From a virus: 64,000 bases of DNA. Positions within the stretch are counted from its first letter, which is position 1. The number at the start of each line of letters is the position of its first letter. The stretch is taken from the IMG/VR virus record IMGVR_UViG_3300002026_000003; one strand, 5' to 3'. The notes beneath the pieces were generated by a model. The model saw only the letters and a list, made by a program, of their open reading frames with translations. It searched no databases and was not told the origin of the DNA. Below are positions 2,717 through 63,869 of the stretch, in pieces. The translations under genes were made by a program, and so were the position numbers.

Positions 2717-2953
2717 ATGAAAGTGTATTGGGCCATACAGGGCGCTATAAACGCCATAAGCAGGGAGCATACCGTATATAGAGATGCGTTTCTGCACGTA
2801 CAGAAAGAGGTTATAACGCCAAAGCGGGGCATGAAGATGGGTAGGCCACGGTCTAGGTATTACATAGACGGCGACCCCAGAGAATTCCGTACAGAGGATG
2901 ATATGGTAGCTGCTTTAGAAAAAGAAAATTTGCAATCGATTTCAAAGGAGTAA
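2717..2953 (+). CDS. hypothetical protein (78 aa)
   Basis: ORF track; follows a 231-nt non-coding gap; its C-terminal codons carry motif copy 1. Confidence 0.55.
   Translation: MKVYWAIQGAINAISREHTVYRDAFLHVQKEVITPKRGMKMGRPRSRYYIDGDPREFRTEDDMVAALEKENLQSISKE
2930..2945. repeat. 16-bp palindromic motif, copy 1
   Basis: TTGCAATCGATTTCAA (exact). Last codons of ORF 2717 (LQSISK); abuts AGGAG at 2946-2950. Confidence 0.9.
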
Positions 2954-2957
2954 TAAT

Positions 2958-3119
2958 TTGTGGTATGGACTAAAGGAAGGCAACAGACTTATAGCCGTTA
3001 AATATTTTCGCCATCGTGAACCGGATATATTGGACTTCGGTGTACCTATCGGGATCAAAGCCGCGTACGTTGTAGTAGTTGTGCGCATACGAGAAGTAGG
3101 AACCGCAGTATCGTACTGA
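2958..3119 (+). CDS. possible small protein (53 aa, TTG start)
   Basis: Below the track's size cutoff. AAGGAG 2945-2950 lies 7 nt upstream of TTG 2958. The frame is open to TGA 3117-3119 and exactly fills the 2954-3130 gap. Confidence 0.35.
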   Translation: MWYGLKEGNRLIAVKYFRHREPDILDFGVPIGIKAAYVVVVVRIREVGTAVSY

Positions 3120-3130
3120 AGGAGATACAA

Positions 3131-3626: not shown

Positions 3627-4085
3627 ATGACTGATTTTAACGAAAAATACGATAAAAATGACCCAAAAATAGCCACAAAACTAGCGTATGTAGAGGAATT
3701 AAACGCCAGAACGGCGGCTAAAATTGCTAGCTGGCAGGATATGTACGATGAACTGCGCAATATGGGGCGTGGTTATATGGATGATCCTACGAAAGAAACG
3801 GCAGATTTAACCATTCTGGCCTTTATGTCATTCATGCTTGCCCTAGAACAGCTACCTGACGAGGGCGACATAGCAGTAATAGCCAGAAAGATGAACGAAA
3901 TAATGGTTATGCGCACTGACCTTACCGGAGCTACTGTATATGTAGGCGAGGAAGCAGACCAACAACGCGCAACTGCGGCTCTTATGGGCGCAGCAGTGAT
4001 GGCTCAAGTAATAACGGCTCTGAGTCAGCAAGAAGAATCACCCAAAGAGGCCAAGGCTACAACAGTCAAGCCGGTGTTGCACTAA
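3627..4085 (+). CDS. hypothetical protein (152 aa)
   Basis: AAGGAG upstream; ORF track; stop overlaps the next start (TAATG). Confidence 0.6.
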   Translation: MTDFNEKYDKNDPKIATKLAYVEELNARTAAKIASWQDMYDELRNMGRGYMDDPTKETADLTILAFMSFMLALEQLPDEGDIAVIARKMNEIMVMRTDLTGATVYVGEEADQQRATAALMGAAVMAQVITALSQQEESPKEAKATTVKPVLH

Positions 4086-5164
4086 TGGCCGGCAGAGTAC
4101 GCAAGACGCAGATTGATCCTACCACTATTCGACTATCTGAGCATTTTCTACTTAGTGATTTCATGGGTTGTAATTCTGTGTACACTAAAGGCCTAAAAAA
4201 TATATGGGATGGTGACGATGGCAAGCTAGCTGAAGGTACACATCTATGCGCCACGCTACTTGAACCCATACTAAGCACCTATGGCCCCGCCTCCGTTTCG
4301 TATGGGTACATATCGCCAGCCTTGAGTAAGCAAATAGTGACGTACCAAGACCCAGATATGCCGTCATACCATAGGTGGGATAAAGGAGCGGCAGCGGATT
4401 TATGCGTCCATGCGTGGGTTAAACGCAAGGCACCCATATTTTTAGCGCACGAAATAGACCAGACACTAGACTATTCTAGGATGATTACGTACTCTGAGAG
4501 TCCGTTTATATGCCTAGCAACACAAATTTCTGAAGGTAGCTCCCCAAGGAAGGCGTTTTATGAAAATAGGTATTGTGGGAAAAAGGGCGCGAAGCCTCAA
4601 TACATTAGGAAATCTAACAGTAGCAAGGTCAAAGCTAAAGAAGCTGAGACGCTTGTACTTGAATTTGACTGGAAAGGGGCGGGTTATCCTACCTATCATG
4701 GGGGAGGGATACGGCAACTACACCATAATCGTGTATCGCGCTATAGCGTTGTATCCGACTTTCTATATTCAACGTACGCAATACGTGAGGGGGTTGCGAA
4801 TGTACCAGACCTACAACGCTTTGCTGAGCAGTTTAGGCAGGCAGGAGCAACCTATGATTCCCTGCTAGAGAAACTAGACGTACCTAAGCTTAGTATTGTT
4901 CGCGGTTTTGAGTCATTCAGATTTAACGACTACCCGCTTTTTAGCTGGAAGGATAATTTTGCAATTGATTTCAAACCTCCAAGCTACTTATCGGCAAATG
5001 ACATAGCCACCGCAGCACAAGGACTACCTCATGTGGTTTCGGTAGGGGTTGATAACACTACGGGCACCGCTCGTATCATAGGAAAGCCTATACAGCGCGA
5101 GGGAACTACTACAGGTAGAGTATCGGGTAGGGCAAGTCATGCTAGCAATAGGCCAAAAGCGTGA
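4085..5164 (+). CDS. putative peptidase M15A-like protein, tandem domains (359 aa)
   Basis: N-terminal half has LSEHFLLSDF ... SYHRWDKGAAADLCVH (SxHxxGxAxD-like zinc peptidase motif). The C-terminal half repeats the pattern in degenerate form (YSVVSDFLYS ... NFAIDF). Confidence 0.4.
   Translation: MAGRVRKTQIDPTTIRLSEHFLLSDFMGCNSVYTKGLKNIWDGDDGKLAEGTHLCATLLEPILSTYGPASVSYGYISPALSKQIVTYQDPDMPSYHRWDKGAAADLCVHAWVKRKAPIFLAHEIDQTLDYSRMITYSESPFICLATQISEGSSPRKAFYENRYCGKKGAKPQYIRKSNSSKVKAKEAETLVLEFDWKGAGYPTYHGGGIRQLHHNRVSRYSVVSDFLYSTYAIREGVANVPDLQRFAEQFRQAGATYDSLLEKLDVPKLSIVRGFESFRFNDYPLFSWKDNFAIDFKPPSYLSANDIATAAQGLPHVVSVGVDNTTGTARIIGKPIQREGTTTGRVSGRASHASNRPKA
4959..4974. repeat. motif copy 2
   Basis: TTGCAATTGATTTCAA (1 mismatch). 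Inside ORF 4085, read as FAIDFK. Confidence 0.75.
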
Positions 5165-5495: not shown

Positions 5496-5861
5496 ATGGT
5501 GCGAGTACGCAGGACTAGGGAAGTAGTAGAAGAGCCACCCACAAGACAACGTAGAGTAAGGAGTAGGGTGATGGTAGAAGAGCAGCAGGAACTAGACCTA
5601 GTAGAATCTGAGGAAGATGACGAAGGGTTGGATATGTCAGACACCCCTGATGCGCCTAGGGAAGGTGAAACAGAGTTTGAGGCGGCAGATCGTATTGAGG
5701 ATAAGTATAGGAAACGCGCCAAGTCACCGTTAAAGGCTATCCGCGCCTTTTGCGTTATTTGCGTAGGGTGTTATCCTAGAGAGGTAGCAAAATGTACTGC
5801 ACCAAAATGTGTGCTATTCCCATTTCGCTTTGGTCGTAACCCATTTCAAAAGAGAGGGTAG
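5496..5861 (+). CDS. hypothetical acidic protein with C-terminal Cys-rich (zinc-ribbon-like) motif
   Basis: AAGGAG upstream. C-terminus is FCVICVGCYPREVAKCTAPKCVLFPFRFGRNP. Confidence 0.6.
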   Translation: MVRVRRTREVVEEPPTRQRRVRSRVMVEEQQELDLVESEEDDEGLDMSDTPDAPREGETEFEAADRIEDKYRKRAKSPLKAIRAFCVICVGCYPREVAKCTAPKCVLFPFRFGRNPFQKRG

Positions 5862-5862
5862 T

Positions 5863-6381
5863 ATGGTTCCGGTTATTGCATTTACTGGCAAGGCTCGTAC
5901 GGGCAAAGATACTGCGGCTGATGTTCTACGAAAGACTTGTGACTACGTACGGTACGGTTTTGCAGACCCTATACGCGATATGTTGCAGGCCCTTCGTATA
6001 GACCACCGTGCCATTGACGATAAAGAGGCACCTATACCGCGTATAGGAAAGTCTCTTCGTGAGTGTATGCAAACACTTGGTACGGAATGGGGAAGGGAGC
6101 TAATACACCCCGACTTATGGGTGATAGTCGCTAGGGATAGAATAGGTGCGCACAGGCTGCGCGGACGCAATGTAGTAATCCCTGACGTTAGGTTTGAGAA
6201 TGAAGCTATCATGGTTAAGTCTATGGGAGGCACAATAGTACGCATAACCAGAGAAGATGTAGAGTCTGTTCGTGAGCATAAGTCAGAAGATGGTATACCG
6301 GATAAGTATGTAGACGTAACCCTCGATAACGATTCATCGATAGAGCAGTTTCTATCTAGAGTAGTTGAATTACCGTACTAG
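5863..6381 (+). CDS. deoxynucleoside monophosphate kinase-like P-loop protein
   Basis: ATG 5863 follows GAGAGGG. IAFTGKARTGKDTAADVL P-loop and overall pattern resemble T5/T4-type phage dNMP kinases. The track start at 5809 was rejected because it overlaps the upstream gene. Confidence 0.55.
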   Translation: MVPVIAFTGKARTGKDTAADVLRKTCDYVRYGFADPIRDMLQALRIDHRAIDDKEAPIPRIGKSLRECMQTLGTEWGRELIHPDLWVIVARDRIGAHRLRGRNVVIPDVRFENEAIMVKSMGGTIVRITREDVESVREHKSEDGIPDKYVDVTLDNDSSIEQFLSRVVELPY

Positions 6382-6385
6382 ATTT

Positions 6386-6401
6386 TTGAAATCGATTACA
6401 A
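6386..6401. repeat. motif copy 3
   Basis: TTGAAATCGATTACAA (1 mismatch). Intergenic, directly abutting the terminator hairpin at 6401-6425. Confidence 0.8.
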
Positions 6402-6425
6402 AGCCCGGTTTTCCGGGCTTTTTTA
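6401..6425 (+). terminator. intrinsic terminator after dNMP kinase gene
   Basis: AAGCCCGG-TTTT-CCGGGCTT, a perfect 8-bp stem followed by TTTTTT. Confidence 0.8.
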
Positions 6426-6872: not shown

Positions 6873-8473
6873 CAACTAAGCATATTCGGCGTGTACGCAT
6901 GCCTAAAGTAGAAGCACGAGTGACCTCCCTTACGTCGACTAGGCGCAGGGCTGATGTTACTAGGCAAGTAGACGTTGATTACTCCAGCAGCGCTATGGGG
7001 TCTACTGCCCCAATAACCCCACCGTATGACACGCTCAGTCTAGTAGGTACGTATGACCAGAGTAATATGCTACGGCAGTGTGTAGCAGCATACGTAACGA
7101 ATATTGCTATGTACGGGTGGGAGATAGTTGCGGCCTCGCAGGATACCCCTATTGATGAAGACGAGCGTTTGGAGTTGCAGTCGTTTATAGACAATGCCAA
7201 CTCTGATGAATCGTTGATGACACTACACGCTAAGGTAGTAGAGGACTATGAGAAGGTCGGCTACGCCTTTCTGGAAATAATACGCGACAAGGCAGGTAGA
7301 GTATCCTTGCTGAGACACGCTAGGGCTACAGTAATAGGGGTATGCCCCAAGAACCCAGAACCAGTACCAATACGCTACGATGTAATGCGCGGTAAGCGAG
7401 CGTCCTTTGTTACTGAGTTAAAGACGTTTCGTCTATATGTGCAGATTTGTGGAGGCAAGAGAACGTATTTCAAGGAGTTTGGCGACCCTAGGGTGCTTAA
7501 CTACGAAACTGGTACATTCTCCACTAAAGATAATCCAGTACCCAATGACAAGGAAGCTACTGAGCTTATCCACTTTAGGCAAAATTCTGAGGATGTATAT
7601 GGTGTTCCACGTTGGATCAACCAGCTTCCTTCTATCCTAGGTAGTCGGGAAGCGGAGGAAGTTAACCTACGCTACTTTGAGGATAACACTGTACCTCCGA
7701 TGATTCTGTCAGTAGCTGGAGGTAGGCTAACTGGTGAGTCTTTCCGTGACCTTAAGAAGCTACTGAATAACCAAGGCATAGGCAAAGAGCGGCAAAACCA
7801 GATAATGCTTATAGAGGCTGTACCTGAGCGCGATAGTCTAGAGGATAAGGGTAACGTACAGCTTAAGGTAGATAAGCTAACTGACTCTAGGCCTAGCGAT
7901 GGTCTATTTAAGGATTACGATGAGGCTAACCAAGCGAAAGTACGATCCTCATTTAGGCTTCCGCCTGTAGCTGTTGGCTTATCTCAGGATGTTACATTCG
8001 CTACGGCAAACGTTTCTGCGTTTATAGCGGAAACACAAGTGTTTGCACCGGCAAGGGCTACCTTTGATGAAGTGTATAACAAGAAGTTTGTTAATCACGC
8101 TGATGGTTTGGCCTTAAAGACAGTACTACTACGTAGCAGGGCACCTGCTATTACTAATCCAGAAACCCTTATAAAGAGCCTAACTGCACTTAATGTAATG
8201 GGCGCGGTAACACCACGGTCAGCTTTGGGTGCTGCTAACAAAATCCTACAGGTAGAACTCCCGCAGTATCCAGAAAAAGGTGAGGAGGGCTATGATGCGT
8301 GGATGGATAAACCTATTATTTTCTCCAGTAAAGGACAATCTGGTAATACGGGCATTGACCCTAGCGGAGCGGGTAATACTCATGAAACTCAGGCGCAAAA
8401 AGATGCAGCTACTAAGGCTCTTGAAGCGTCTGGTTCCGTAGAGCCTCAATCACCGGAGAATGGTCAGCAATGA
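6869..8473 (+). CDS. portal protein
   Basis: 534 aa, first large gene of the head module. Central region (YGWEIV...GYAFLEIIRDKAGRVSLLRH) looks like a PBSX/HK97-type portal. Followed by protease, scaffold and capsid genes. Confidence 0.8.
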   Translation: MTTKHIRRVRMPKVEARVTSLTSTRRRADVTRQVDVDYSSSAMGSTAPITPPYDTLSLVGTYDQSNMLRQCVAAYVTNIAMYGWEIVAASQDTPIDEDERLELQSFIDNANSDESLMTLHAKVVEDYEKVGYAFLEIIRDKAGRVSLLRHARATVIGVCPKNPEPVPIRYDVMRGKRASFVTELKTFRLYVQICGGKRTYFKEFGDPRVLNYETGTFSTKDNPVPNDKEATELIHFRQNSEDVYGVPRWINQLPSILGSREAEEVNLRYFEDNTVPPMILSVAGGRLTGESFRDLKKLLNNQGIGKERQNQIMLIEAVPERDSLEDKGNVQLKVDKLTDSRPSDGLFKDYDEANQAKVRSSFRLPPVAVGLSQDVTFATANVSAFIAETQVFAPARATFDEVYNKKFVNHADGLALKTVLLRSRAPAITNPETLIKSLTALNVMGAVTPRSALGAANKILQVELPQYPEKGEEGYDAWMDKPIIFSSKGQSGNTGIDPSGAGNTHETQAQKDAATKALEASGSVEPQSPENGQQ

Positions 8474-8485
8474 AATCGATTGCAA
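8470..8485. repeat. motif copy 4
   Basis: ATGAAATCGATTGCAA (1 mismatch). Position 1-3 is the protease start codon (MKSIAK). Confidence 0.8.
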
Positions 8486-9075
8486 AGGATGTAAGGCTGC
8501 ACACTCGCTCAGCCCCTGAATGGGAGCGTATCGTAATGGCCGAGGTATTGGTGCCTGATACGCCAAACGTATTCAACGATTACTGGACTAAAGAGAATAT
8601 CAAACAAGCCGCGTATGCTTTCATGCAGCGCGGCTTTGGCATTGATATAGAGCATGATAACGTTGATGTTACGGGGGCGGTGCACGTAGTGGAGTCCTTC
8701 ATTGCCCGTTCTGGTGATCCTGATTTTATAGAGGGGTCATGGGTTATCGGCATGTATATAGCTGATGACGTTATATGGCAAGATATCCTAGATGGAAAAA
8801 TTAACGGCTACTCTTACGAGGCTTTGGTATCGTTTATGTCTGCTACACTGCAAGTACTGGACGACGGTATACGGCAAGGCATCACCGAAGAAGACCCTAT
8901 AGACGGCCACAGTCACATATTTATGGTGATGGTTGACGTAAACAATAGACCCATAGATGGCGGAACCTCCGAGGAAAATGGACATGCGCACACGATCAGT
9001 ACGCACACTATTACTGACGAGGCGGCTGGTCATGTACATCGATATAACCTAGTTACCGGAAAGGATGGAAAATGA
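8470..9075 (+). CDS. prohead protease, XkdF-like (putative)
   Basis: VMAEVLVPDTPNVFNDYWTKENIKQAAYAFMQRGFGIDIEHDN resembles the XkdF/S78_2 family. Sits between portal and scaffold. The start codon is part of motif copy 4. Confidence 0.6.
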   Translation: MKSIAKDVRLHTRSAPEWERIVMAEVLVPDTPNVFNDYWTKENIKQAAYAFMQRGFGIDIEHDNVDVTGAVHVVESFIARSGDPDFIEGSWVIGMYIADDVIWQDILDGKINGYSYEALVSFMSATLQVLDDGIRQGITEEDPIDGHSHIFMVMVDVNNRPIDGGTSEENGHAHTISTHTITDEAAGHVHRYNLVTGKDGK

Positions 9076-10532
9076 GTAAGAGTACAAAAAGGCTGGATGG
9101 CGTTGACGAAATAGTGACAAAACAAGTTGAAGTGAGTAAACTTGTGCAACCAAAGTTCTTGACGCTTACTGAAAAGCCAGCAAATCAGGTAGCGTTCAAG
9201 GTTGTTCGTGATGACAAGGGTGAGGAACCTAATATGACCAAGACAAGTGCCGTGGCTACGGAAGGTCGTCGCCACCGTATCCGCTCCACGAAACGCTCAT
9301 CTCTTCTGTACATTGAGTTTCCAGAGGGCACTACCGCTGATGAAGCTAAGGCGGCTATGGAGGAGTATGGCCTTGAGGATTATGAGCTTGTGCAGGATGG
9401 CGATAAAGTAAAGTGCAAGCGTAGCGATCTTGCCGAAATCCCAGCTAACGCTATTACCGTGCAGATTGGCGAGGGACGTAAAGCTGGCATACTTCGTTCA
9501 GAGGTACCAGTAGCTGAAATGCAAGACACTATGCCGAATATTTCGGTTGTTGCAATCGAATTCAAAAATGAGGTATTCGCAACAACTGAGGCCGTCATGG
9601 CATATTTGACGCGCCACGATATTGACTTCCTAGAAAAAGGAGTCGAAAATACCGACTCATGTATTCGTGTTACCCGTAGCGAGTACGCGGAAGACGCAGA
9701 GCTTCGCCGTGTAGAGGTAGAAACTGGCGTAGTTGCGGTAGTTACTCGTGCTGAAATATCTGATATAGTAGACGCTATTCCGTTTATTGAAGTAGTATCG
9801 GAGTCAGCATACGGTCAGTGGGGTTGGGGTCAACTAGATTTCGGCGCTCGTATGGCGGATGTAGAGTTCTGTGAGTCGGCGGAAGAGGCAACATCTACTC
9901 TGCGTCGCGTGGTGGAAGATATTTTGTTTTACAGTCAGTTGCCTGTTTCGGTACGGAAAGAACTGGTAATTCGGGCTGCGTCTCAATTCTCGGCGTACGT
10001 CGGCTCTTTGCTCGATGCACTCCCCGCGAAAGTAGTTTTACTCAACCGTTCCAATTTGGAAAAACTCAAGGAGCATAGTATGACCCAGAAGACCGAAGTT
10101 ACCGGGGCGGAAGGTCAAATTGCTGAGCGTAAGGACGATGCTACGGCTACGCCGGAAGTTAAGACCGAAGCTACGCAAGATGACAACACGCCAGTTACCC
10201 GCTCGGAATTGAAGAGCATTATTGGTGAGGCCGTGTCCGCTGCTCTCGCTGCCCAAGCTACCCCCGCTAAGGCTGAGGAAACGAAGCGTAGCGATGAGGA
10301 AGTAAAAGACAGCAAGGAAGGTGACAAGGCTGATGGTGAAAGCAATACCCTGAAGGCTGTCGAGGAAGTAGTTACTCGTTCTGTCGGTGGGCTTGCTGAT
10401 GCAGTTAAGACGATTGGTGATCGTTTGACAGCAATCGAAGGGGCCACCACTGTTCGCTCCGATGGAGTGGATAGCGCAACGTCCCAGCCGAAAGACCCGT
10501 TTGTTGGGATTTTTTCCCACGGTCGTAAGTAA
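9072..10532 (+). CDS. scaffolding-like / head accessory protein (486 aa, acidic)
   Basis: Lies between protease and major capsid. Has an acidic, low-complexity, Ala/Glu/Lys-rich C-terminal third. Confidence 0.45.
   Translation: MSKSTKRLDGVDEIVTKQVEVSKLVQPKFLTLTEKPANQVAFKVVRDDKGEEPNMTKTSAVATEGRRHRIRSTKRSSLLYIEFPEGTTADEAKAAMEEYGLEDYELVQDGDKVKCKRSDLAEIPANAITVQIGEGRKAGILRSEVPVAEMQDTMPNISVVAIEFKNEVFATTEAVMAYLTRHDIDFLEKGVENTDSCIRVTRSEYAEDAELRRVEVETGVVAVVTRAEISDIVDAIPFIEVVSESAYGQWGWGQLDFGARMADVEFCESAEEATSTLRRVVEDILFYSQLPVSVRKELVIRAASQFSAYVGSLLDALPAKVVLLNRSNLEKLKEHSMTQKTEVTGAEGQIAERKDDATATPEVKTEATQDDNTPVTRSELKSIIGEAVSAALAAQATPAKAEETKRSDEEVKDSKEGDKADGESNTLKAVEEVVTRSVGGLADAVKTIGDRLTAIEGATTVRSDGVDSATSQPKDPFVGIFSHGRK
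9550..9565. repeat. motif copy 5
   Basis: TTGCAATCGAATTCAA (1 mismatch). Inside ORF 9072, read as VAIEFK. Confidence 0.7.
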
Positions 10533-11571: not shown

Positions 11572-11587
11572 TTGCAATCGATTTCAA
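11572..11587. repeat. motif copy 6
   Basis: TTGCAATCGATTTCAA (exact). Lies 6 nt after the capsid terminator and 19 nt before ATG 11606. Confidence 0.9.
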
Positions 11588-40162: not shown

Positions 40163-40184
40163 CTAACCATAAAGGATTTATATC

Positions 40185-53684: not shown

Positions 53685-55340
53685 ATGGACATAACTAGCA
53701 GTCACGCACAACGCCATTCTGAAAGAGACTTTTCAGTGAAGTTCTCCACGTACGTAGATTCGGGGGCAGGGATCATCCATGTGCGCACCAATGAGATAAT
53801 CCGCGCATCTATTGCCGTACGTACTCAGGCCATTCTGGATAACGGAACGGTCAAGGAGTGGGATGTAGTTAATGGTTTCCGTACCTACACCAAGGATAAT
53901 GTAGATAACGTACTGATTGCAGGCGATGCCAATATTGACATTGGCTCTGCCTTCTCTTCCCCGTTGGATCAGTTGCGCAATTCATCCAGCGAGGATGGTG
54001 TGTTTTACTTCGTCTATGTAAATCCCCATGTATTCATGGAGAACAACCCGACACTGACACAATTGCTTATTACCTATAGCCATGCACTACCATCCAAGAA
54101 TGTAATTGTGGTATTGATTACTCCAGATGCACCATTACCTACTGAGGTAGATGCGAATATCCTCTCTATCCATTTTGAGCCACCCGGACTAGGTGAGTTG
54201 AAGGACGCGCTCAGCGGTATCCTAGACGGGGTTAGCGGAGACTTTGAGGATGGAGTGGACATGGACGAAGCTGCCGTAGAGAAAGTATGCTACGTTGGCG
54301 CAGGTATGACTAAGAACCACTTTGAGATGTATGCTGCTTTGTCTATAGTAGAGGCGGGTCGCGCTGGCAAGGATTCAGTCAATGTCGATGACCTTATCAA
54401 AGGCGTATCGATAGGCAAGACTGATGTAGTCAACTCCAACGATATCTTAGAACTGTATCCCTCCACCGATATCAATAACGTAGGCGGTCTGGAGAACTTG
54501 AAGGATTGGGTACAGAAACGGCGTAGCTGCTACTCGGATGCGGCTAAGGACTTTGGTATTGAGCCACCTAAGGGAGTGGTCTTGGTAGGCCCTCCCGGTA
54601 CTGGCAAGAGTCTTATCGCCAAGGCTATCTCATCTGAGCTTGGGGTTCCTCTAGTACGTCTAGACTTTGGGCGGGTATTCAACTCGCTGGTAGGGGCCTC
54701 AGAGCAACGCATGAGAACGGCGCTGAAGATGGTAGAGATGATGAGTCCTTGCGTACTATTCTGCGACGAGATAGACAAGGGTCTAGGCGGCATTGGCGGT
54801 AGCGGGGATAGCGGTACCAGCAACAGGGTACTAGGCTCGTTCCTTACTTGGCTACAGGACTGCCAGCATCCAGTATTTGTCATGGTAACTGCCAACAACG
54901 TAACAGGACTTCCGCCAGAGATGCTTCGCCGTGGCCGCTTTGATGCTATCTTCTCTACGTCTTTGCCTAACTCTAAAGACAGGCGCGAGGTACTACGCAT
55001 CCATCTGAAGTTGCGTAAGCGTAAGCTGGAGAGCTTTAATAAGGACGACGTTAATGAGATTGTTAATCTCTCTGAAGGATATGTACCCGCAGAGATTGAA
55101 TCTGCCGTAAAGGATGCTCTGGTTGACGCGTACAATGCGGACGAAGAGATGGGTATGCAGCATGTCAAGAAAGCATTACTGTCTATGGTTCCGTTGTCTA
55201 AGGCCTTCGCTAGACAGATTCAGGAAATGAATGAGTGGGCAAAAGCAAACGCAACGCCGGCAGGCATCGACTCAAGTTCTGCTACAGAGACAAAGGTAGC
55301 AAATGCTCGGCGTGTCAGTACTAGGAGCAGGGCGAGATAA
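53685..55340 (+). CDS. AAA+ ATPase (classic AAA, Ycf46/FtsH-like module)
   Basis: GVVLVGPPGTGKSLIAKA (Walker A), VLFCDEIDK (Walker B), TANNVTGLPPEMLRRGRFD (SRH/Arg fingers). Confidence 0.85.
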   Translation: MDITSSHAQRHSERDFSVKFSTYVDSGAGIIHVRTNEIIRASIAVRTQAILDNGTVKEWDVVNGFRTYTKDNVDNVLIAGDANIDIGSAFSSPLDQLRNSSSEDGVFYFVYVNPHVFMENNPTLTQLLITYSHALPSKNVIVVLITPDAPLPTEVDANILSIHFEPPGLGELKDALSGILDGVSGDFEDGVDMDEAAVEKVCYVGAGMTKNHFEMYAALSIVEAGRAGKDSVNVDDLIKGVSIGKTDVVNSNDILELYPSTDINNVGGLENLKDWVQKRRSCYSDAAKDFGIEPPKGVVLVGPPGTGKSLIAKAISSELGVPLVRLDFGRVFNSLVGASEQRMRTALKMVEMMSPCVLFCDEIDKGLGGIGGSGDSGTSNRVLGSFLTWLQDCQHPVFVMVTANNVTGLPPEMLRRGRFDAIFSTSLPNSKDRREVLRIHLKLRKRKLESFNKDDVNEIVNLSEGYVPAEIESAVKDALVDAYNADEEMGMQHVKKALLSMVPLSKAFARQIQEMNEWAKANATPAGIDSSSATETKVANARRVSTRSRAR

Positions 55341-55350
55341 GGAGGCAAAA

Positions 55351-55366
55351 ATGCAATCGATTGCAA
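55351..55366. repeat. motif copy 23
   Basis: ATGCAATCGATTGCAA (1 mismatch). Position 1-3 is the start codon (MQSIAI). Confidence 0.8.
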
Positions 55367-55959
55367 TTGGTTATGGCAAAGTGACTTTCTCTACGGCATC
55401 CGCGACACTCGCGGGTTTCGTAGTGGAGGCCCCTTTCATCCGCACACTAACGTCAAAGAAGCTGCCTAAGATAGGCGGCACTATGCGTATCCCGGTAAGC
55501 AGCCATCCTGAGATTGATGGTTGGTTGTTTCAGGACACGGTACATGCACCTGACGGCACTATCGTTATGGTGCAGATGCAGTACAAGTACAGAGGTTCTG
55601 GTTTGCGGGATGGGGCTATATTCGTACGTACCCGTACTGAGGGTAGCGGATTGTTGATTGCGGCTAAACTACCAAGTGATCCGCGCTCTACTATGGGTAC
55701 TAATAGGCATCCGCTATTCGCAGGGTGGGGCGATATTATGACGGTAGAAGAACTAGCTAAGTGCGGTATTGAGCCTCCCAAGAATTTTATCAGCGCATTC
55801 ATGGAGCCTGAGGAAATCGATGAGTGCTTTGACATAACGGTTACCAGACCCCCAGTATCACTACCTCCCTTGGAAGAGACCAGAGTTTCATCAAGTGGGG
55901 AAGAAGTGACGATACGGATAACCCGTACTCAGCGTAGAATGCGTATTCGTAGGACGTAG
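55351..55959 (+). CDS. hypothetical protein (202 aa)
   Basis: ATG 55351 follows AAGGAGG, so the track start at 55303 was rejected. The start codon and first 5 codons (MQSIAI) are motif copy 23. Confidence 0.6.
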   Translation: MQSIAIGYGKVTFSTASATLAGFVVEAPFIRTLTSKKLPKIGGTMRIPVSSHPEIDGWLFQDTVHAPDGTIVMVQMQYKYRGSGLRDGAIFVRTRTEGSGLLIAAKLPSDPRSTMGTNRHPLFAGWGDIMTVEELAKCGIEPPKNFISAFMEPEEIDECFDITVTRPPVSLPPLEETRVSSSGEEVTIRITRTQRRMRIRRT

Positions 55960-55960
55960 A

Positions 55961-55998
55961 CATACAGATTTGACAAAGAAATCTATATGTGCGATAAT
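55961..55998 (+). promoter_or_regulatory. strong sigma70-type promoter upstream of DUF1257/DUF2997 genes
   Basis: TTGACA (55970-55975)-17 nt-GATAAT (55993-55998). About 28 nt are near-identical to the element at 63344-63381. Confidence 0.6.
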
Positions 55999-56028
55999 AC
56001 CTAGTGCGGTAATTTTAAGGAGAGGCAT

Positions 56029-56475
56029 ATGAGCCATACTACAGAAGTGAATGATATCGTATTCTCTGATATCGAAGCGTTGAAAGCAGCAGTGAATGAA
56101 CTTAACACTAGAGGAGTTAAGTGCAGTCTAGTTAAGGGCGGCACCCCACGCGCTTACTACCAGAACCAGCAAGGTATGGGCGCTGCGGATTACACGCTTC
56201 AGTTGGCTGACTCCCCGTACGATATTGGTTTCTATCGGGACAACGCTAAGAAAGGCCTTGTAGCCCGTACTGATCTTTTCATGGGTCACGTATCACGGTT
56301 ACTTGGTGCGCAAGGCCAGACCGGGGAGAAAGCAGAACAGGCAGCACTAGGTAAGCTTTACCAGACCTACGCAATTCATGCCGCTACGCGTAAAGCAGTG
56401 CAGCAGGGTATGTCAGTAAAGCGGGTGAATAATTCGGACGGTAGCGTACGTCTTGTGGTTGGGGGTATTCGATAA
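56029..56475 (+). CDS. DUF1257-like protein
   Basis: MSHTTEVNDIVFSDIEALKAAVNELN...YDIGFYRD follows the remembered DUF1257 pattern (MSH..I...I.D...L..AL..L ... YDIGF). Confidence 0.55.
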   Translation: MSHTTEVNDIVFSDIEALKAAVNELNTRGVKCSLVKGGTPRAYYQNQQGMGAADYTLQLADSPYDIGFYRDNAKKGLVARTDLFMGHVSRLLGAQGQTGEKAEQAALGKLYQTYAIHAATRKAVQQGMSVKRVNNSDGSVRLVVGGIR

Positions 56476-56675
56476 TGGCTAAGCAGATCGTAATTGATAT
56501 TACCCCTGCCGGATCGGTAAAGGTAGATGCTCAGGGGTTCAATGGAGTTGGGTGTGACAAGGCCACTGAGATGATCGAGATTGCCATCGGTGGGGCTGGC
56601 GTAAAGAAGAAGACTAAGAAGCCTGAGTACTACGCACCGGCAGGACAAAAGGCATCCAATAAACTAGCGTTTTAA
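56475..56675 (+). CDS. DUF2997-like protein
   Basis: KQIVIDITPAGSVKVDAQGFNGVGCDKATEMIEIAIG follows the remembered DUF2997 pattern. TAATG coupling to the DUF1257-like gene. Confidence 0.55.
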   Translation: MAKQIVIDITPAGSVKVDAQGFNGVGCDKATEMIEIAIGGAGVKKKTKKPEYYAPAGQKASNKLAF

Positions 56676-56685
56676 GGGGTATAAC

Positions 56686-57081
56686 ATGGGCGAACTGGTC
56701 ATAGCTTTTGAGGTTGATGGTAGGCTGGAGGCGTTGCACTTAGACAAGTTTGATCTTGGCTTCCTTGGTGCTAAAAGTATTGCTAGGCAGTCAAGCATTG
56801 TCTGGAATGAGATGGCCCAGAATTGGGCTATACATTACCACGCTGGCGAGGAACGGGTTATGCACGAAAACCTAGACGGCTTCTCTGGGTATGATGAAGC
56901 GCGTGAGTTTGAGGTGCTATGGCTTAACAACTGTAGGCTGTATCAAGTAACCCCGGAAAGCTACCTAGGCCTTATGTACGCCGGCTACCTACGGTATGGT
57001 GATAAAACAGAGTGCTTCACCCTACCTGACGGTTCTTGTATAGGCGAAGCTTGCATGCACTGCGTTACCCATAAGACGTAG
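56686..57081 (+). CDS. hypothetical protein with C-terminal Cys cluster (131 aa)
   Basis: ORF track. C-terminus is CFTLPDGSCIGEACMHCVTHK. Confidence 0.55.
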   Translation: MGELVIAFEVDGRLEALHLDKFDLGFLGAKSIARQSSIVWNEMAQNWAIHYHAGEERVMHENLDGFSGYDEAREFEVLWLNNCRLYQVTPESYLGLMYAGYLRYGDKTECFTLPDGSCIGEACMHCVTHKT

Positions 57082-57177: not shown

Positions 57178-58614
57178 ATGGCATCATTTGCGTATCAGGT
57201 AGAAGAAAAGAAAAAACGTGGTAGACCAGCAAAACGAATAGATAAACGGGTACGTAGCTATAAAGACATAGTAGCGGCACTGCCGCCAGAAGTAGGGAGC
57301 AAGCTGGTATTCAGTAGGGAAGTATTCGTCAAGTCATATGATCTGACGAAATGGTTGCGCGTATATGGCTTAGGGGTACTGAACCCGCAGGAGTTCTTGC
57401 TATTGCACTTCATATTCTCCCGCACTCTGCATTACGGAAAGCTAGCAGAGATGATTACGAAGGATCATTTTCTTCGTGGAGTATGGAGCGGCGATGAAGT
57501 TGTCTGCATGCCAATACGCACAAACCCAAACACACTGTACAAAACCATACGCAGTCTAGAAGAAAAAGGACTGATAACGGTAACCCCGATCCACCTACAG
57601 GGCCGTGACTTGCCCACTTTGTACGAAATTGCAATCGATTTCATTTTAGGTTTGCGTCCTAGTGAGGAATATATGAGCAAGCTTCGACAGCCCAAAGTAA
57701 AGAAAACTGCCGATGTTGTAGATTTTGAGGCCTTTAGGGCAGCAAAAATGGGCCTAATTGGTGGTACCAATTCGTACCACCTAGACGACAAACAGGTGGT
57801 ACCAATTCGTACCACAAATATAAGTAATATAAAAACAGAAGATAATAAAGTATTAGTTGCGTCGGCTTCGCCTAGCAACGAAGTCGCTTTGCGAGTGCGT
57901 AGAAAACCAAGAGCATCAAGCGGTTTTGAAATTGATTGCAATGCAAGTGCGCGAGATGTAATCAATCTTACTATCGAACGCAGTACTGCGAAGCGAGAGG
58001 CTAAGGTAGTACGGGCAGCGCAGGGAAGCGCGGTAGCGCTAGCTGATCTTAACGCTACTTGGAAGAAAGCCATGATTGCTGAATTCGGTACATGCACCGT
58101 TGCGGGGCTTACAGTTAAAGAGTTTGGCATGTTCAAGAGAATAGTAAAGACGCACGAGATAGCTTGCACATGGCTGGAGTTCTTTACTTGGGTAATTGGT
58201 AACTGGACACGCATAAACCGCGAGAGTCGTGAGTTCAACGAGTACAGGAAGAAAAAGAGTGGAGAATGGTCTATGAAGCAGGAGGACATGGTATTTCTAG
58301 GGAGCGAAGTACCTGACCTATTTATGACCATCAAAAACTTTGGAAAGCTTATTAAGCGCTATTCACAGCATTCGCTAGGTGTAGTAGTAGCTGGTAAGCG
58401 CGAAGATACTGAGGAAGTTAAACAGCTACGGCAGGAGCTAGCCTCTGCGCGTAAGGAGGCATCAACTAGCCAGCACCTACTAAGAAAGGCTATGACTGCG
58501 CGAGAGGAAAAGCCTGTAGCTAGAGTTGCGCCTAAGGTAAAGGCTAGAATAGTAAATCCAGACGTAGATACGTTCTTTGATGAACCTACGGAAACTTTGC
58601 CGAGGTGGAAATGA
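57178..58614 (+). CDS. putative replication initiator (winged-helix, O/DnaD-like)
   Basis: Basic N-terminus KKKRGRPAKR. LLLHFIFSRTLHYGK...NTLYKTIRSLEEKGLITV is winged-helix-like. Lies upstream of the helicase and contains iterons, an AT-rich tract and two motif copies. No obvious SD before the ATG. Confidence 0.5.
   Translation: MASFAYQVEEKKKRGRPAKRIDKRVRSYKDIVAALPPEVGSKLVFSREVFVKSYDLTKWLRVYGLGVLNPQEFLLLHFIFSRTLHYGKLAEMITKDHFLRGVWSGDEVVCMPIRTNPNTLYKTIRSLEEKGLITVTPIHLQGRDLPTLYEIAIDFILGLRPSEEYMSKLRQPKVKKTADVVDFEAFRAAKMGLIGGTNSYHLDDKQVVPIRTTNISNIKTEDNKVLVASASPSNEVALRVRRKPRASSGFEIDCNASARDVINLTIERSTAKREAKVVRAAQGSAVALADLNATWKKAMIAEFGTCTVAGLTVKEFGMFKRIVKTHEIACTWLEFFTWVIGNWTRINRESREFNEYRKKKSGEWSMKQEDMVFLGSEVPDLFMTIKNFGKLIKRYSQHSLGVVVAGKREDTEEVKQLRQELASARKEASTSQHLLRKAMTAREEKPVARVAPKVKARIVNPDVDTFFDEPTETLPRWK
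57629..57644. repeat. motif copy 24
   Basis: TTGCAATCGATTTCAT (1 mismatch). Inside the initiator gene (EIAIDFI), 116 nt upstream of iteron 1. Confidence 0.8.
57760..57780 (+). repeat. iteron 1 (21-bp perfect direct repeat)
   Basis: GGTGGTACCAATTCGTACCAC, containing GGTAC-N6-GTACC inverted arms. Confidence 0.85.
57795..57815 (+). repeat. iteron 2 (21-bp perfect direct repeat)
   Basis: Identical GGTGGTACCAATTCGTACCAC 35 nt downstream of iteron 1, so it is translated in a different frame. Confidence 0.85.
57816..57856 (+). other. AT-rich tract adjacent to iterons (candidate DNA-unwinding element)
   Basis: aaatataagtaatataaaaacagaagataataaagtattag. Much more AT-rich than the surrounding coding sequence. 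Confidence 0.5.
57926..57941. repeat. motif copy 25
   Basis: TTGAAATTGATTGCAA (1 mismatch). Inside the initiator gene (FEIDCN), about 70 nt downstream of the AT-rich tract. Confidence 0.75.
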
Positions 58615-60451: not shown

Positions 60452-60467
60452 TTGAAATCGATTTCAA
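60452..60467. repeat. motif copy 26
   Basis: TTGAAATCGATTTCAA (exact, perfect palindrome of the A/T type). Intergenic; AAGGAG and ATG 60480 follow. Confidence 0.9.
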
Positions 60468-60668: not shown

Positions 60669-63343
60669 TAGACAAGAAACACTGTCTTGGTTGCCCGTTA
60701 GATGGGATATCGGCACCATCTGCTACAAAAGGCAATACCAAGGCTAAGTTTATGGTGGTTGTTGATACACCAAGTAGTTTTAACGCGGCCAAAGGTAGAT
60801 TACTGTCGGAGCGGTCTAGCGGGGTGTTTGCAGAACACATGGACGCCGCTGGTTTTGATACTAGTGAGTTTTCGTTTGTGCCACAAGTCAGATGCCCACA
60901 CGACGCAGACCAGATTACTACCAAGGAAGTACGTGAGATTCAGAAACATTGTCGTGAGCATTTCTTGGACGATGTTTTTGAGCAGAAGCCTGAAATGATT
61001 ATCCCTATCGGTGCAGAGCCAGCTAGGCAGGTATTCGGTAGGGCAGTAAAGATAACCAAAGTTCGCGGAGTGGCTGAGTTCAACGAAGAACACTCGTGCA
61101 TGGTGATGGCTTTACTAAACCCCGGACAGGTGGTTATGTACCCACAGCATGCGCCTATATTCGCGGCAGACTGCCAGACCCTACGTAGAGTAGTTGATAG
61201 TGGTTATGACGTACTGGCTGCGGGTAATGCGCTACTAGGTGACTACGAGTACATAGACGATCTAGAGTTTCTGATAGAGCAAGAACCTTCCCTACTATTC
61301 TTCGATACTGAGAATACTAGTCTTGAGTATTTCAAGAAAGGCCCAGACGATGCTAGGGAATACGACCCTAAGAGACATGGTAAGGAATTCAACCCAAGTG
61401 CAGCTATTCTTACTATGCAGTTCTGTATTGAGCCGGGGAAGGCATACATGCTGGTATGGGATCACCCAGAGAAACCTATAGCCATGCGCAAGAAGCGTAA
61501 GCTGGTAGAGCAGTTAGGTAGGCTATTGTGCAATCCTAAAACTAGAGTTCTTGGGCAGAACCTGAAATACGATAACAACTACCTGTTTGAGCAAACCGGT
61601 GTGCGCTTCAAGATAGGTGGCGATACTCTTATGCTCGCTGCCCTCCTAGACGAGAACATGATAAGCAAGAGTCAGGATGTACTGGTTAAGCATTACGTAC
61701 CGGAGATGGCTGGGTATGCAGATGCGTTCAACGCTTCTGTAGATAAGTCTAGAATGTGGGAGGTTCCTCTAGCCAAGCTTATAGGCTACGGCTGCGGCGA
61801 CGTAGACTCAGGCTACATGCTGTATAAGGCAATGTTCAAGGAGATGCGTAAGGATGACCGGCTTATTGAACACTACCGCAGGGTATCACTGCCGGGGCTT
61901 AACACATTCGCGGCGGTAGAGACTAGCGGCATACATATTGACCAGCAGGCCTTATCTGACTTTGAAGCACTCATGGAAGTATCTGTTGCTCAGCAAGAGG
62001 CAGACCTACTAGAGCAGGTACCTAAATCAATCAAGCGTAAGCACATAGATAAGGGACTGAAGTTTAGTCGGTCAGACTTTGTACTGGATATATTATTCAG
62101 GCACAAGGATGGATTCAGGCTACGCCCGAAGGTATATACAGCCAAGACGGCAAAGCTGCCTGCGGATAAGCGGGTGCCTAGTACATCGTCTAAAGACCAC
62201 CTACCGTACTTTTTCGATGACTGTCCTTTTACCTTGCAGCTTTCCCAGTATGTGAAAGACTCTAGGTTGCTTGGTACCAACATCAAGGGATTCCAGAACA
62301 AGTATATCCATGATGGTTTGGTGAGGCCCGTATATAGCCTATGGACTACCGTTACCGGCAGGTCATCATCTGAGAACCCTAACGGGCAGAACTTCCCCAA
62401 GAGAGGCCCTAACGCTACTGCATACCGGAGAATCTTCGTACCACCTCCGGGTTATTACGTACTGGAGGCGGACTTGTCTCAAGCAGAGCTACGTATTGCG
62501 GCGGATATGGCTAGTGATAGGACTATGCTTGGTATCTACCAGCAAAAGGGCGATATCCATACAGCCACGGCATTGATTACGATGGGTACTGATATGGAGC
62601 ATTTTAAGTTGTTGCCCAAGGCTGAGCAAAAATCTGCGAGACAGAAGGCCAAGGCTGTTAACTTTGGTTTCATTTACGGCATGGGCTGGAGAAAGTTTAT
62701 CGGCTATGCTAAGACGCAGTATGGCGTGGAGTTTACGGAGCTAGAGGCGCAACGGATACGCACTGCGTTCTTTGAGAAGTACCACGGATTGCCTGCATGG
62801 CACGATTCAACTAGAGAGGCGGCACACAGGGACGGTATGGTTCGTTCCTACTCTGGGCGGATACGTCACCTACCTATGATTCATTCTGAGGATCAAGGCG
62901 TAGAGTCGGAAGCAGGCCGGCAGGCTATCAATAGCCCTGTGCAGGAGTTTGCTTCATCGCTAGGCATCATGGCTATCGGTAGGCTGCATGACGAGATAGA
63001 CCCTGAGTACCTAGCACCCATAGCGTTCGTACATGACGCTATCTACTGCTACGTACCAGCTAAGTACCTTGAGTGGGGAGCCAAGACGTTGAAGCGATAC
63101 ATGGAGAGTAACCCCCTAGAAGAGTGGTTTAACCTACGCATGAAATGCCCCATCATTGCTGATGTTAGCTTTGGTCTTAACTTTGGTGACACTAACGAGA
63201 TGGAGGGGTTATCTCTGGATGAGCCTTATGACTTCGGCAGGTTCTATGATGTTGAGCAGCAGACCGGTGTAGAGGTACCTAAGCAGAGAACACCACCCAA
63301 TAGGGGCTTACGCAAGACAGACCCGTATGGGCTACCTGTTTAG
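60665..63343 (+). CDS. family A DNA polymerase with N-terminal uracil-DNA-glycosylase-like domain and 3'-5' exonuclease
   Basis: N-terminus CLGCPL...AKFMVVVDTPS resembles a UDG family-4 fold. Exo motifs: FFDTENTSLE, NLKYDNNYL, YGCGDVD. Pol motifs: A LEADLSQAELRIAA, B RQKAKAVNFGFIYGMG, C FVHDAIY. Confidence 0.85.
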   Translation: MIDKKHCLGCPLDGISAPSATKGNTKAKFMVVVDTPSSFNAAKGRLLSERSSGVFAEHMDAAGFDTSEFSFVPQVRCPHDADQITTKEVREIQKHCREHFLDDVFEQKPEMIIPIGAEPARQVFGRAVKITKVRGVAEFNEEHSCMVMALLNPGQVVMYPQHAPIFAADCQTLRRVVDSGYDVLAAGNALLGDYEYIDDLEFLIEQEPSLLFFDTENTSLEYFKKGPDDAREYDPKRHGKEFNPSAAILTMQFCIEPGKAYMLVWDHPEKPIAMRKKRKLVEQLGRLLCNPKTRVLGQNLKYDNNYLFEQTGVRFKIGGDTLMLAALLDENMISKSQDVLVKHYVPEMAGYADAFNASVDKSRMWEVPLAKLIGYGCGDVDSGYMLYKAMFKEMRKDDRLIEHYRRVSLPGLNTFAAVETSGIHIDQQALSDFEALMEVSVAQQEADLLEQVPKSIKRKHIDKGLKFSRSDFVLDILFRHKDGFRLRPKVYTAKTAKLPADKRVPSTSSKDHLPYFFDDCPFTLQLSQYVKDSRLLGTNIKGFQNKYIHDGLVRPVYSLWTTVTGRSSSENPNGQNFPKRGPNATAYRRIFVPPPGYYVLEADLSQAELRIAADMASDRTMLGIYQQKGDIHTATALITMGTDMEHFKLLPKAEQKSARQKAKAVNFGFIYGMGWRKFIGYAKTQYGVEFTELEAQRIRTAFFEKYHGLPAWHDSTREAAHRDGMVRSYSGRIRHLPMIHSEDQGVESEAGRQAINSPVQEFASSLGIMAIGRLHDEIDPEYLAPIAFVHDAIYCYVPAKYLEWGAKTLKRYMESNPLEEWFNLRMKCPIIADVSFGLNFGDTNEMEGLSLDEPYDFGRFYDVEQQTGVEVPKQRTPPNRGLRKTDPYGLPV

Positions 63344-63381
63344 GCATAAAGCTTGACAAAGAAAGCTATAGGGCGTAAGAT
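63344..63381 (+). promoter_or_regulatory. sigma70-type promoter, paralog of 55961-55998
   Basis: TTGACA (63353-63358)-17 nt-TAAGAT. Shares CATAnAGnTTGACAAAGAAAnCTATAnG with the other copy. Confidence 0.5.
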
Positions 63382-63422
63382 GTTCTTAGTTTATATCGTC
63401 GCATATACGAAAGGAGACAGCT

Positions 63423-63869
63423 ATGGCTGATCGCATTAGGCGGGTACGTACCGCAATACCAGAAACAAAAAAAGGGCCAACAGTGGCTCAGACAAAAGTC
63501 ATGCAAGAGAATTTGAAATCGATTGCACAATGGCAACGTGAAGCGGAGCAGCTTCGTAAGAATATGGCCGAGGCGGAAGCAGACCTGTTCGCAGATATGA
63601 TTCGGTTTGATGTGATTCATCTGAATGGGGCAGACGGAGATTGCTGGGCTGACATTACACAGTCGGCTGGCAAAGCCACAAACCTGATCGACCCTAAGGG
63701 GTTGCGCGGGTTGCTTAAGAACGATGCCGACTACTACGCTTGTGTTAGCGTATCGGTCACCAAAACAAAAGAGTTTCTTTCTGGTAAAGAACTTGAGTCA
63801 ATCACCACGCATATCCCCGGAAAGGTGGGAGATAAGAAGCTGAAAATCACTAAGGATGATGAAAAGTAA
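63423..63869 (+). CDS. hypothetical protein (148 aa)
   Basis: AAGGAG upstream; a sigma70-like promoter lies upstream. Carries motif copy 27. Confidence 0.55.
   Translation: MADRIRRVRTAIPETKKGPTVAQTKVMQENLKSIAQWQREAEQLRKNMAEAEADLFADMIRFDVIHLNGADGDCWADITQSAGKATNLIDPKGLRGLLKNDADYYACVSVSVTKTKEFLSGKELESITTHIPGKVGDKKLKITKDDEK
63513..63528. repeat. motif copy 27
   Basis: TTGAAATCGATTGCAC (1 mismatch). Codons 31-35 of ORF 63423 (LKSIAQ). Confidence 0.8.

Follow-up and report, generated by a model that had tools for sequence, protein, structure and literature searches.

The window, by which we mean the whole 64,000-nt stretch of viral DNA taken from IMG/VR record IMGVR_UViG_3300002026_000003, carries 27 copies of a short palindrome (the dyad) tiled evenly along its length. 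It is part of a phage genome of about 102 kb, of which about 80 kb has been recovered, the public assemblies being fragmented. Comparison with related phages indicates that the dyad array is a trait inherited across a family of siphophages of Proteobacteria with genomes of about 80-110 kb. Such a family-wide, evenly tiled array is previously undescribed; a full-text literature search for the 16-mer and its halves gave nothing relevant, and the papers on SM1-like and DLP phages are silent on repeats. We propose, with confidence a little short of an even chance, that the array consists of sites for a symmetric, phage-encoded protein, most likely the ParB-fold protein or proteins of a gene cassette adjoining the terminase genes.

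A pattern search of the window recovered 12 copies exact to TTGMAATCGATTKCAA, 12 with one mismatch and three with two, reproducing exactly the coordinates, sequences and mismatch split given by an earlier sequence-only reading of the same DNA, whose tally of the two variable positions in the exact copies (4 C/G, 1 A/T, 4 C/T, 3 A/G) was also confirmed. Three further copies with three mismatches start at 30372, 42616 and 43147. The word is in fact an 18-bp palindrome, t-TTGMAATCGATTKCAA-a: in 121 non-redundant sites pooled from the window phage and the uncultivated phages closest to it, the extra outer base pair appears as T at position -1 in 76 sites and as A at position +17 in 83. Against the 27 copies observed, a density of 0.42 sites per kb, dinucleotide shuffles gave 0.00 exact copies and 0.02 at up to two mismatches, while order-3 and order-5 Markov models gave 0.07 and 0.33. 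The claimed excess over chance also withstood synonymous-codon shuffles, which preserve all protein sequences and per-gene codon usage: 17 dyads are fully intragenic where 1.9 are expected (maximum 4), and codon choice is therefore constrained to preserve the DNA word. A de novo scan of the window revealed no other dyad families, and the window contains no tRNA genes and no Rfam families.

The variation among copies reveals that the two halves of the dyad behave independently. Positions 4 (C/A) and 13 (G/T) combine freely in 118 sites, as 27 C/G, 25 C/T, 34 A/G and 32 A/T (odds ratio 1.02), so that complementary and non-complementary pairs are equally frequent (59 and 59). The centre is CG in 73 sites, TG in 25 and CA in 24, and no strand bias is visible in either the arms (25 versus 34) or the centre (25 versus 24), although the long open reading frames (ORFs) of the window all lie on the + strand. 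In the cultured relative DLP5 the asymmetric centre likewise points both ways about equally, though that genome is coded on one strand. The hairpin energy of the sites (-1.6 kcal/mol, compared with -1.05 for shuffles) is indistinguishable from that of shuffled sequence. A hairpin, cruciform, REP-like repeat or RNA stem-loop is ruled out by this lack of compensatory variation and by the negligible folding energy. Independent half-sites, the lack of strand bias and the lack of useful hairpin energy therefore fit a symmetric protein on duplex DNA, and the pattern of variation lends good support to the view that a dimeric protein binds the dyads in duplex DNA. The sequence-only reading had preferred a dimeric protein to a stem-loop on the strength of the exact copies, and roughly ten times more data now bear it out.

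Across the family the dyad keeps a constant 14-bp frame, TG.A-N6-T.CA, while the inner bases differ by lineage. Uncultivated relatives from viral metagenomes carry the same word as the window at similar density, and many uncultivated relatives hold 0.3-0.5 copies of the frame per kb. Among cultured phages even the nearest share only about 50% identity in the portal protein, and megablast against 50,697 phage records found no close DNA relatives. The forms taken by the dyad in other lineages are as follows.

SM1 (Pseudomonas): (G)TGCAA[A/G]CG[C/T]TTGCA(C), 30 copies.
DLP5 (Stenotrophomonas): TGCAAT[CA/TG]ATTGCA, 35 copies.
L338C (Rhizobium): TGCAAC-NN-GTTGCA, 43-49 copies in 100 kb.
HJ05 (Aeromonas): TTG[C/A]AAC[C/T][G/A]GTTGCAA, 16 copies in 50 kb.
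Uncultured metagenomic lineages: TGAAAT..ATTTCA, TGAACC..GGTTCA, TGCACTTAAGTGCA and TTGCAGG..CCTGCAA, with varying copy number.

Lineage-specific inner bases on a constant frame indicate a reader that co-evolves with its sites and that is hence likely to be encoded by the phage. A distant TerL locus that lacks a ParB match (L152) holds six copies of a GC-rich dyad, CGACG-N4-CGTCG, with the same 5-4-5 geometry; these may have arisen by chance in a genome of 64% GC or may belong to a different system.

The same comparison bears on a reader supplied by the host. The window motif fits the LacI-family consensus TGnAAnCGnTTnCA exactly, including its central CG, and the SM1 and L010 variants of the dyad (TGCAARCGYTTGCA) fit it as well. 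A host repressor of the LacI/GalR family could therefore bind the dyads, with the phage either sensing host sugar or nucleotide status in this way or titrating the repressor off host operons, and four Undibacterium genomes share an orthologous, single-copy intergenic 18-mer beside a LacI-family regulator gene. However, the CG that is invariant in the LacI/GalR consensus is retained in the window, SM1 and L010 but lost in L338C (a free NN), DLP5 (CA/TG only) and HJ05 (YR), and the inner bases vary by phage lineage, as would be expected of a co-evolving phage partner. Site quality follows a phage gene cassette, and 30-50 evenly spaced copies, some of them intragenic, are unlike any known LacI regulon. 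The bacterial genomes among the matches listed have scattered and mostly single copies of the 18-mer, these counts being lower bounds. The phage ORFs scanned showed no LacI domain, nor did the approximately 80 kb of genome seen contain a LacI-type gene. We regard a host repressor of this type as quite improbable. In Undibacterium luofuense (L246 1500-1900) three LacI-type operators, TTGCAATCGATTGCAA, TCGCAAACGATTGCAG and TTGCAATCGTTTGCAA, stand beside a LacI-family gene; the stretch is apparently non-coding (no ORF of at least 90 aa between 842 and 1891) and is conserved in four Undibacterium genomes.

When the sites of the window were mapped onto relatives with 57-69% protein identity, many proved to be retained at orthologous positions, so that the conservation which the sequence-only reading had made a test of its motif is found both family-wide and at individual sites. 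The following sites could be followed in several genomes.

63513: retained in 5 of 5 relatives.
60452: retained in 5 of 5 relatives.
8470: retained in 4 of 5 relatives.
14702: retained in 3 of 4 relatives, as an island of conserved DNA in L002, L003 and L007, and decayed in L005.
57926: retained in 3 of 5 relatives.
9550: retained in 3 of 5 relatives.
53599: retained in 2 of 3 relatives (L172 and L159).
11572: retained in 0 of 5 relatives.
55351: retained in 0 of 5 relatives.

The other mappable sites of the window are each kept in one relative, and there is therefore turnover alongside retention. The clearest case of retention within a gene is the orthologue of site 63513, where the flanking protein is essentially unalignable among six genomes and the codons TTG-MAA-TCG-ATT-GCA are nevertheless chosen identically in five of the six, with two substitutions in L164. 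On these alignments, selection maintains the intragenic copies at the level of the DNA.

About 95% of the window is covered by the gene model, yet around half of the dyads touch gene boundaries. The individual sites, including two degenerate copies that fall in a long gap of the array, lie as follows.

2930-2945: exact; within the final codons of ORF 2717-2953, with the Shine-Dalgarno sequence AGGAG immediately after and the next start at 2958/2961.
4959-4974: one mismatch (centre TG); within the endolysin-like gene 4085-5164; kept in L001.
6386-6401: one mismatch; begins 4 nt past the stop of 5809-6381 and touches the foot of the terminator hairpin 6401-6420.
8470-8485: A at position 1, as the first base of the protease gene's ATG start codon (gene 8470-9075, overlapping the stop codon of the portal gene).
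9550-9565: one mismatch; within gene 9072-10532.
11572-11587: exact; 9 nt past the terminator of the major capsid gene and 18 nt ahead of the start at 11606.
12944-12959: one mismatch; at the 3' end of gene 12494-12967, right ahead of the next start; kept in L001.
14702-14717: one mismatch (centre TG); within gene 14474-14902.
19355-19370: exact; within the tape-measure gene 15128-20146.
19874-19889: one mismatch; within the same tape-measure gene, 15128-20146.
23080-23095: two mismatches; occupies the 21-nt gap from the stop at 23077 to the start at 23099.
30362-30377: exact; begins 1 nt past the stop at 30360 and is overlapped by the three-mismatch copy 30372-30387.
34186-34201: exact; includes the TGA stop of 33956-34189, 12 nt ahead of the start at 34214.
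37574-37589: exact; about 42 nt into an ORF beginning near 37532.
39240-39255: one mismatch; within gene 37947-39515.
40147-40162: exact; intergenic, 22 nt ahead of the start at 40185.
42616-42631: degenerate, three mismatches; within gene 42028-44094, in the long gap from 40147 to 44887.
43147-43162: degenerate, three mismatches; within gene 42028-44094, in the same gap from 40147 to 44887.
44887-44902: exact; includes the TGA stop of 44465-44890, 14 nt ahead of the start at 44917.
48649-48664: exact; 81 nt into gene 48568-48987.
49805-49820: two mismatches; close to the 3' end of gene 49306-49851.
50025-50040: two mismatches; within gene 49854-50141.
52233-52248: exact; immediately past the terminator 52196-52227, 14 nt ahead of the ligase gene start at 52263.
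53599-53614: exact; immediately past a hairpin and T-run, 70 nt ahead of the AAA ATPase start at 53685.
55351-55366: A at position 1, forming an ATG start codon with the Shine-Dalgarno sequence AAGGAGG upstream.
57629-57644: one mismatch; within gene 57178-58614.
57926-57941: one mismatch (centre TG); within gene 57178-58614.
60452-60467: exact; begins on the base after the helicase stop at 60451, 12 nt ahead of the start at 60480.
63513-63528: one mismatch; 90 nt into gene 63423-63869.

Dyads at boundaries typically have their first base at the stop codon of the upstream gene or inside it (34186, 44887, 60452, 30362, 23080) and end 12-22 nt ahead of the next start, filling the entire gap in front of the Shine-Dalgarno sequence. 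Three stand immediately past intrinsic terminators (11572, 52233, 53599), one lies ahead of a terminator (6386), and two (8470, 55351) contribute the start codon ATG of the next gene. Some of these positions recur in relatives: a site upstream of the protease gene, comparable to 8470, is also present in DLP5 and L338C, and the arrangement at the major capsid terminator of DLP5 matches that of 11572. Intragenic dyads use two of the three reading frames, the third yielding a TGA stop if position 4 is A. A start codon follows within 0-40 nt of the dyad centre at 16-33% of sites, compared with 5-7% expected. Taken together, this placement looks like use of the cheapest available DNA and not like a fixed relation to translation signals. 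At 30362-30387 the hexamer TTGCAA occurs three times at a 10-bp period, making two overlapping dyads.

The number of copies that end 12-22 nt ahead of a start codon, the three dyads immediately past terminators with no space for another promoter, and the resemblance of TTGCAA to a -35 hexamer would all suit a promoter read by an RNA polymerase or sigma factor of the phage, or a hairpin, processing or translational signal in the transcript. This reading is nonetheless close to refuted. The dyads have no orientation bias on a unidirectionally transcribed genome, half of the copies are intragenic and some overlap a start codon. Within 50 nt on either side of the dyad, the 121 pooled sites have no informative position; they lack an accompanying -10 or -35 box, and their distance to a ribosome-binding site is not constant. 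The absence of base-pair covariation and of appreciable folding energy tells against a signal in RNA, and no RNA polymerase gene was seen and no Rfam match found. The phage-specific promoter offered by the sequence-only reading as an alternative largely falls with these results. A sigma54 promoter was also rejected; the GC-to-GC spacing is 10 and not the 11 of -24/-12 boxes, and the essential GG is missing.

L338C (L068+L070) is informative here. Its genome has a conserved sigma70-like promoter cassette of about 30 nt, TTGACAAAGGATCGGTTC-N-GTTAGATTA, in 22 copies, often preceded by a dyad and the semi-conserved linker cTTAGGTG. At 14 of the 22 promoters a dyad ends 7-12 nt (mode 8-9) upstream of the -35 box, while 35 of the 49 dyads do not adjoin the conserved promoter. 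Since the dyad stands upstream of a separate promoter in L338C, dyad and promoter are distinct elements, although a dyad can occupy the position expected of a regulator's site. In the window, 30362 is the sole dyad adjoining a clear sigma70-like promoter (TTGCAA-N17-TATAGT after the dyad, 56 nt ahead of the start at 30434).

Such positions would suit a conventional small phage repressor or activator, of the helix-turn-helix, ribbon-helix-helix or MerR-like type, acting at operon boundaries to block read-through or to tune promoters much as a stoperator does, and the dyads do favour gene boundaries and adjoin promoters in L338C. In the window the obvious protein of this kind is an RsaL-like helix-turn-helix protein (2237-2485), which matches Pfam HTH_92 at 1e-18 and which the sequence-only reading had put forward, as XRE-like, among its candidate binders. 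The RsaL operator TATGnAAnTTnCATA shares the dyad's TGnAA half-site with its free third base (PMC5314801). Small DNA-binding proteins are moreover hard to detect, and about 20 kb of the genome lies outside the data. In RsaL, however, the half-sites are 3 bp closer together than in the dyad; close homologues of the RsaL-like gene in phages number only three, the others being bacterial; and BLAST did not detect it in L001, SM1 or L338C, all of which bear dyads. Despite its suggestive operator it is a sporadic, accessory gene and was rejected as an unlikely reader for the whole family. The other candidate named from the window, the initiator (57178-58614), fares no better: it has no detectable DNA-binding domain, and nothing links it to the sites. 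Pfam and PHROG scans of about 45 window ORFs found no further DNA-binding domain, and even tiling and conserved intragenic sites exceed the needs of a gene-specific operator. We consider a small regulator of this kind unlikely, if the least strained of the alternatives to a ParB-fold reader. The homologues of the RsaL-like protein are mostly bacterial 72-aa YiaG-like proteins, for example from Sterolibacterium and Sulfuritalea, a pattern that suggests acquisition of the gene from a host, with a weak hint that the host is betaproteobacterial.

The spacing of the dyads is more regular than chance would give. The coefficient of variation of the gaps is 0.67 in the window, 0.57 in SM1, 0.46 in DLP5 and 0.66 in L338C, where random placement gives about 0.96; the corresponding P values against random placement are 0.024, 0.0006, <5e-5 and 0.001. 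The result also holds against a null that places the observed number of sites at random gene starts. Close pairs and long gaps are both avoided, leaving 3-5 sites per 10 kb almost everywhere, or about one site per 2-3 kb. The longest dyad-free stretch outside the large tail genes comprises about 4.7 kb of small genes on the 5' flank of the array (window 1-2929 and L074 1-2127). Even tiling points to a process that would need coverage of the chromosome, not control of particular genes.

One such process might be a DNA transaction, with the dyads as cis-signals for nicks (as in T5-like virion DNA), recombination hot spots, or priming or packaging sites. In favour are the even spacing, the genes of the phage for a ligase, RuvC, a RecA-type recombinase and an exonuclease, the existence of nucleases among ParB-fold proteins, and the position of sites at gene boundaries, where module exchange would be least damaging. 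Known phage nick sites, though, are asymmetric and strand-specific, whereas the dyads are symmetric and without strand bias; 16 bp alone is too short for homologous exchange; and no link between the sites and the terminase is apparent. We think a role of this kind very unlikely.

The best current guess for the reader is instead a ParB-fold cassette. Of the 32 TerL loci that extend far enough to cover the region, 26 gave a match to a gene for a ParB_N protein of about 230-290 aa (ParB-small), 1-5 kb upstream of TerL, and six gave none; the gene is usually followed by genes for a larger second ParB_N protein (ParB-large) and a class-I S-adenosylmethionine (SAM) methyltransferase. The present genome carries the ParB-small and ParB-large genes in a piece from the same sample outside the window (L196), where an exact dyad spans the ParB-small stop codon. 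The suggestion of the sequence-only reading that the binder may be encoded outside the window thus looks right, the best candidate being this cassette. ParB-small is strongly conserved, with 614 homologues at 58-77% identity. Among cultured phages, SM1 (gp051/gp052), DLP5 (gp114) and HJ05 (ORF at 91-984) encode cassette proteins of this kind. Its N-terminal domain matches Noc, ParB and KorB by sequence and predicted fold, and the nucleotide-binding GxxRxxA motif reads GHTRVEAA in the phage protein. ParB-large (L196 4164-5654; phrog_5475) apparently contains two ParB_N-like repeats, at residues ~3-90 and ~154-203. The partner enzyme of the ParB_N module differs in other lineages; in L338C, for instance, a PAPS-reductase-like protein takes that place.

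The presence of the cassette follows the quality of the sites. A relative with a 94-kb genome (L008/L103/L175) is collinear with L094 upstream of the terminase but lacks exactly the block of ParB-small, ParB-large and methyltransferase; it has about 10-11 degenerate sites in the 59 kb seen (0.18 per kb, compared with 0.42 per kb here) and no site at the orthologue of 14702. More generally, enrichment of the frame is 4.6-fold in ParB-positive and 2.1-fold in ParB-negative loci (p = 0.003, uncorrected for phylogeny). Frame enrichment is the usable version of this comparison, a mismatch-tolerant family detector having been swamped by composition noise. What the window phage shares with SM1 and L338C are genes for structure and replication, together with an AAA ATPase/DUF1257/DUF2997 block, which in the window spans 53685-57081 with a further ORF of 131 aa and is conserved in SM1 and L338C.

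Several observations weigh against a ParB-fold reader. Loss of the cassette is a single event, seen in 59 of the 94 kb of that genome; the count of exact-match dyads is not significantly associated with ParB presence (Fisher p = 0.38); and the ParB-negative loci L107 and L119 are still somewhat enriched in the frame. ParB-small has no recognisable helix-turn-helix, Pfam giving ParB_N only and the predicted model no canonical one, and its C-terminal half is non-homologous between sublineages with near-identical dyads (the window type and the DLP5 type). The ParB_N type to which it belongs is usually fused to phage DNA methyltransferases of unknown role (PMC12704722). The first 50 kb of Corndog, an independent phage with dispersed palindromes, contains no ParB gene, and the dyad is also a perfect operator of the LacI/GalR type. 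Two related ideas were rejected: a ribbon-helix-helix in the C-terminus of ParB-small, which is modelled as beta-beta-alpha-alpha, matches no structure specifically and lacks conservation between sublineages, and Corndog as a second case of ParB with palindromes, which has no ParB match in its first 50 kb (the last 20 kb lie outside the data).

If a ParB-fold protein is indeed the reader, the protein or pair encoded with the SAM methyltransferase upstream of the terminase genes would dock at each palindrome and act on the flanking 1-3 kb, as happens with the KorB operators of RK2 and with parS or Noc-binding sites. The outcome might be global control of transcription, or coating or marking of the phage chromosome. 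A more specific version, which we hold to be distinctly unlikely as it stands, makes the palindromes loading sites for a nucleotide-switched ParB-fold clamp that, with its ParB_N partner and the SAM methyltransferase, would spread to coat or mark the whole chromosome. Were it true, phage DNA would be told from host DNA by sequence address, and the coat could protect against nucleases or defence systems or serve to switch transcription genome-wide.

The array matters beyond the window, since the dyad is shared and strongly selected in a large family of phages that is common in the environment, some of whose members have been studied as therapeutics against Pseudomonas aeruginosa and Stenotrophomonas maltophilia; the candidate partner protein alone has more than 600 metagenomic relatives. 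Tiling, and conservation of the DNA within fast-evolving genes, imply a continuing cost paid for a site every few kb; such a cost speaks for a process acting on the whole genome and not for the regulation of a handful of genes. ParB-fold proteins occur in many phages, mostly with no function assigned, and the cluster O mycobacteriophage palindromes have lacked an explanation since 2015; five cultured phage-host pairs open both questions to testing.

Gene length also varies among the relatives. The TerL gene is about 2.8 kb in several (L088-L095, L098, L103), compared with 1.9 kb in SM1 and in this genome (L196), and the DNA polymerase gene (PolA) is 3.4-3.9 kb in several (L157, L172, L173, L177, L180), compared with 2.7 kb here. 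The longer genes look like products of intein or homing-endonuclease insertion.

Among known systems, the stoperators of cluster A mycobacteriophages (bound by L5 gp71) and the start-associated sequences of cluster K resemble the dyads in their many copies, mostly in short intergenic gaps, and stoperators offer a model in which one phage protein binds all sites and acts on transcription genome-wide. The sequence-only reading drew this analogy, which is fair functionally, and correctly noted that those sites are asymmetric, but the dyads part from both groups in symmetry, orientation and position. Stoperators are asymmetric 13-bp sites whose orientation follows transcription, while the dyads are symmetric and orientation-free. 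Start-associated sequences stand a fixed few bases upstream of start codons, whereas the dyads range from 70 nt upstream through overlap with the ATG to mid-gene, and only about a third are followed by a start codon within 40 nt. The approximately 80 kb of genome seen contains no recognisable repressor or integrase; within the family, DLP5 is reported to be temperate and to form a phagemid (PMC5834331), and UF_RH6, which belongs with SM1 to the genus Samunavirus, is reported to be lytic (PMC10281142).

The LacI/GalR operators (cre, the PurR box and GalR sites) agree with the window dyad at every position, including the free third base, but occur as 1-3 copies per regulon in bacteria, compared with about 40 evenly spaced copies per phage genome. 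This match escaped the sequence-only reading, as did the family-wide occurrence and even tiling of the motif, while its account of the sites as dimeric stands.

The closest system in appearance is that of the cluster O mycobacteriophages, siphophages of about 70 kb such as Corndog, with 34 copies of a 17-bp palindrome TGTTCGGNNNCCGAACA of unknown function (PMC4351075). Those copies divide about equally among intergenic DNA, the neighbourhood of gene 5' ends and the interior of genes, and favour neither orientation (PMC4351075). In both arrays, then, a short dyad recurs more than 30 times in coding as well as intergenic DNA, with a central asymmetry that is free in orientation. To judge by this comparison the resemblance is one of kind only: the sequences are unrelated, the geometry is 7-3-7 as opposed to 7-4-7 (with a 5-4-5 core), the phages and host phylum are unrelated, and cluster O sites are denser towards one genome end where the dyads are evenly tiled.

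By analogy, the closest mechanistic model is KorB on RK2, a ParB-fold protein that recognises dispersed palindromes and acts at a distance as a clamp dependent on cytidine triphosphate (PMC11790492). The phage protein differs in having no canonical helix-turn-helix and in belonging to the methyltransferase-associated ParB_N type, and no ParA or KorA partner for it was seen. RK2 has 12 KorB operator (OB) sites, compared with 30-50 evenly tiled dyads, and the sequences are unrelated. Like the dyads, however, KorB OB, parS and Noc sites are palindromes of 13-16 bp dispersed over a whole replicon, and some OB sites stand immediately upstream of -35 boxes while others are far from promoters or intragenic. 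As in other systems of the ParB type, the phages that carry the dyads encode a conserved ParB-fold gene; here its presence tracks the quality of the sites.

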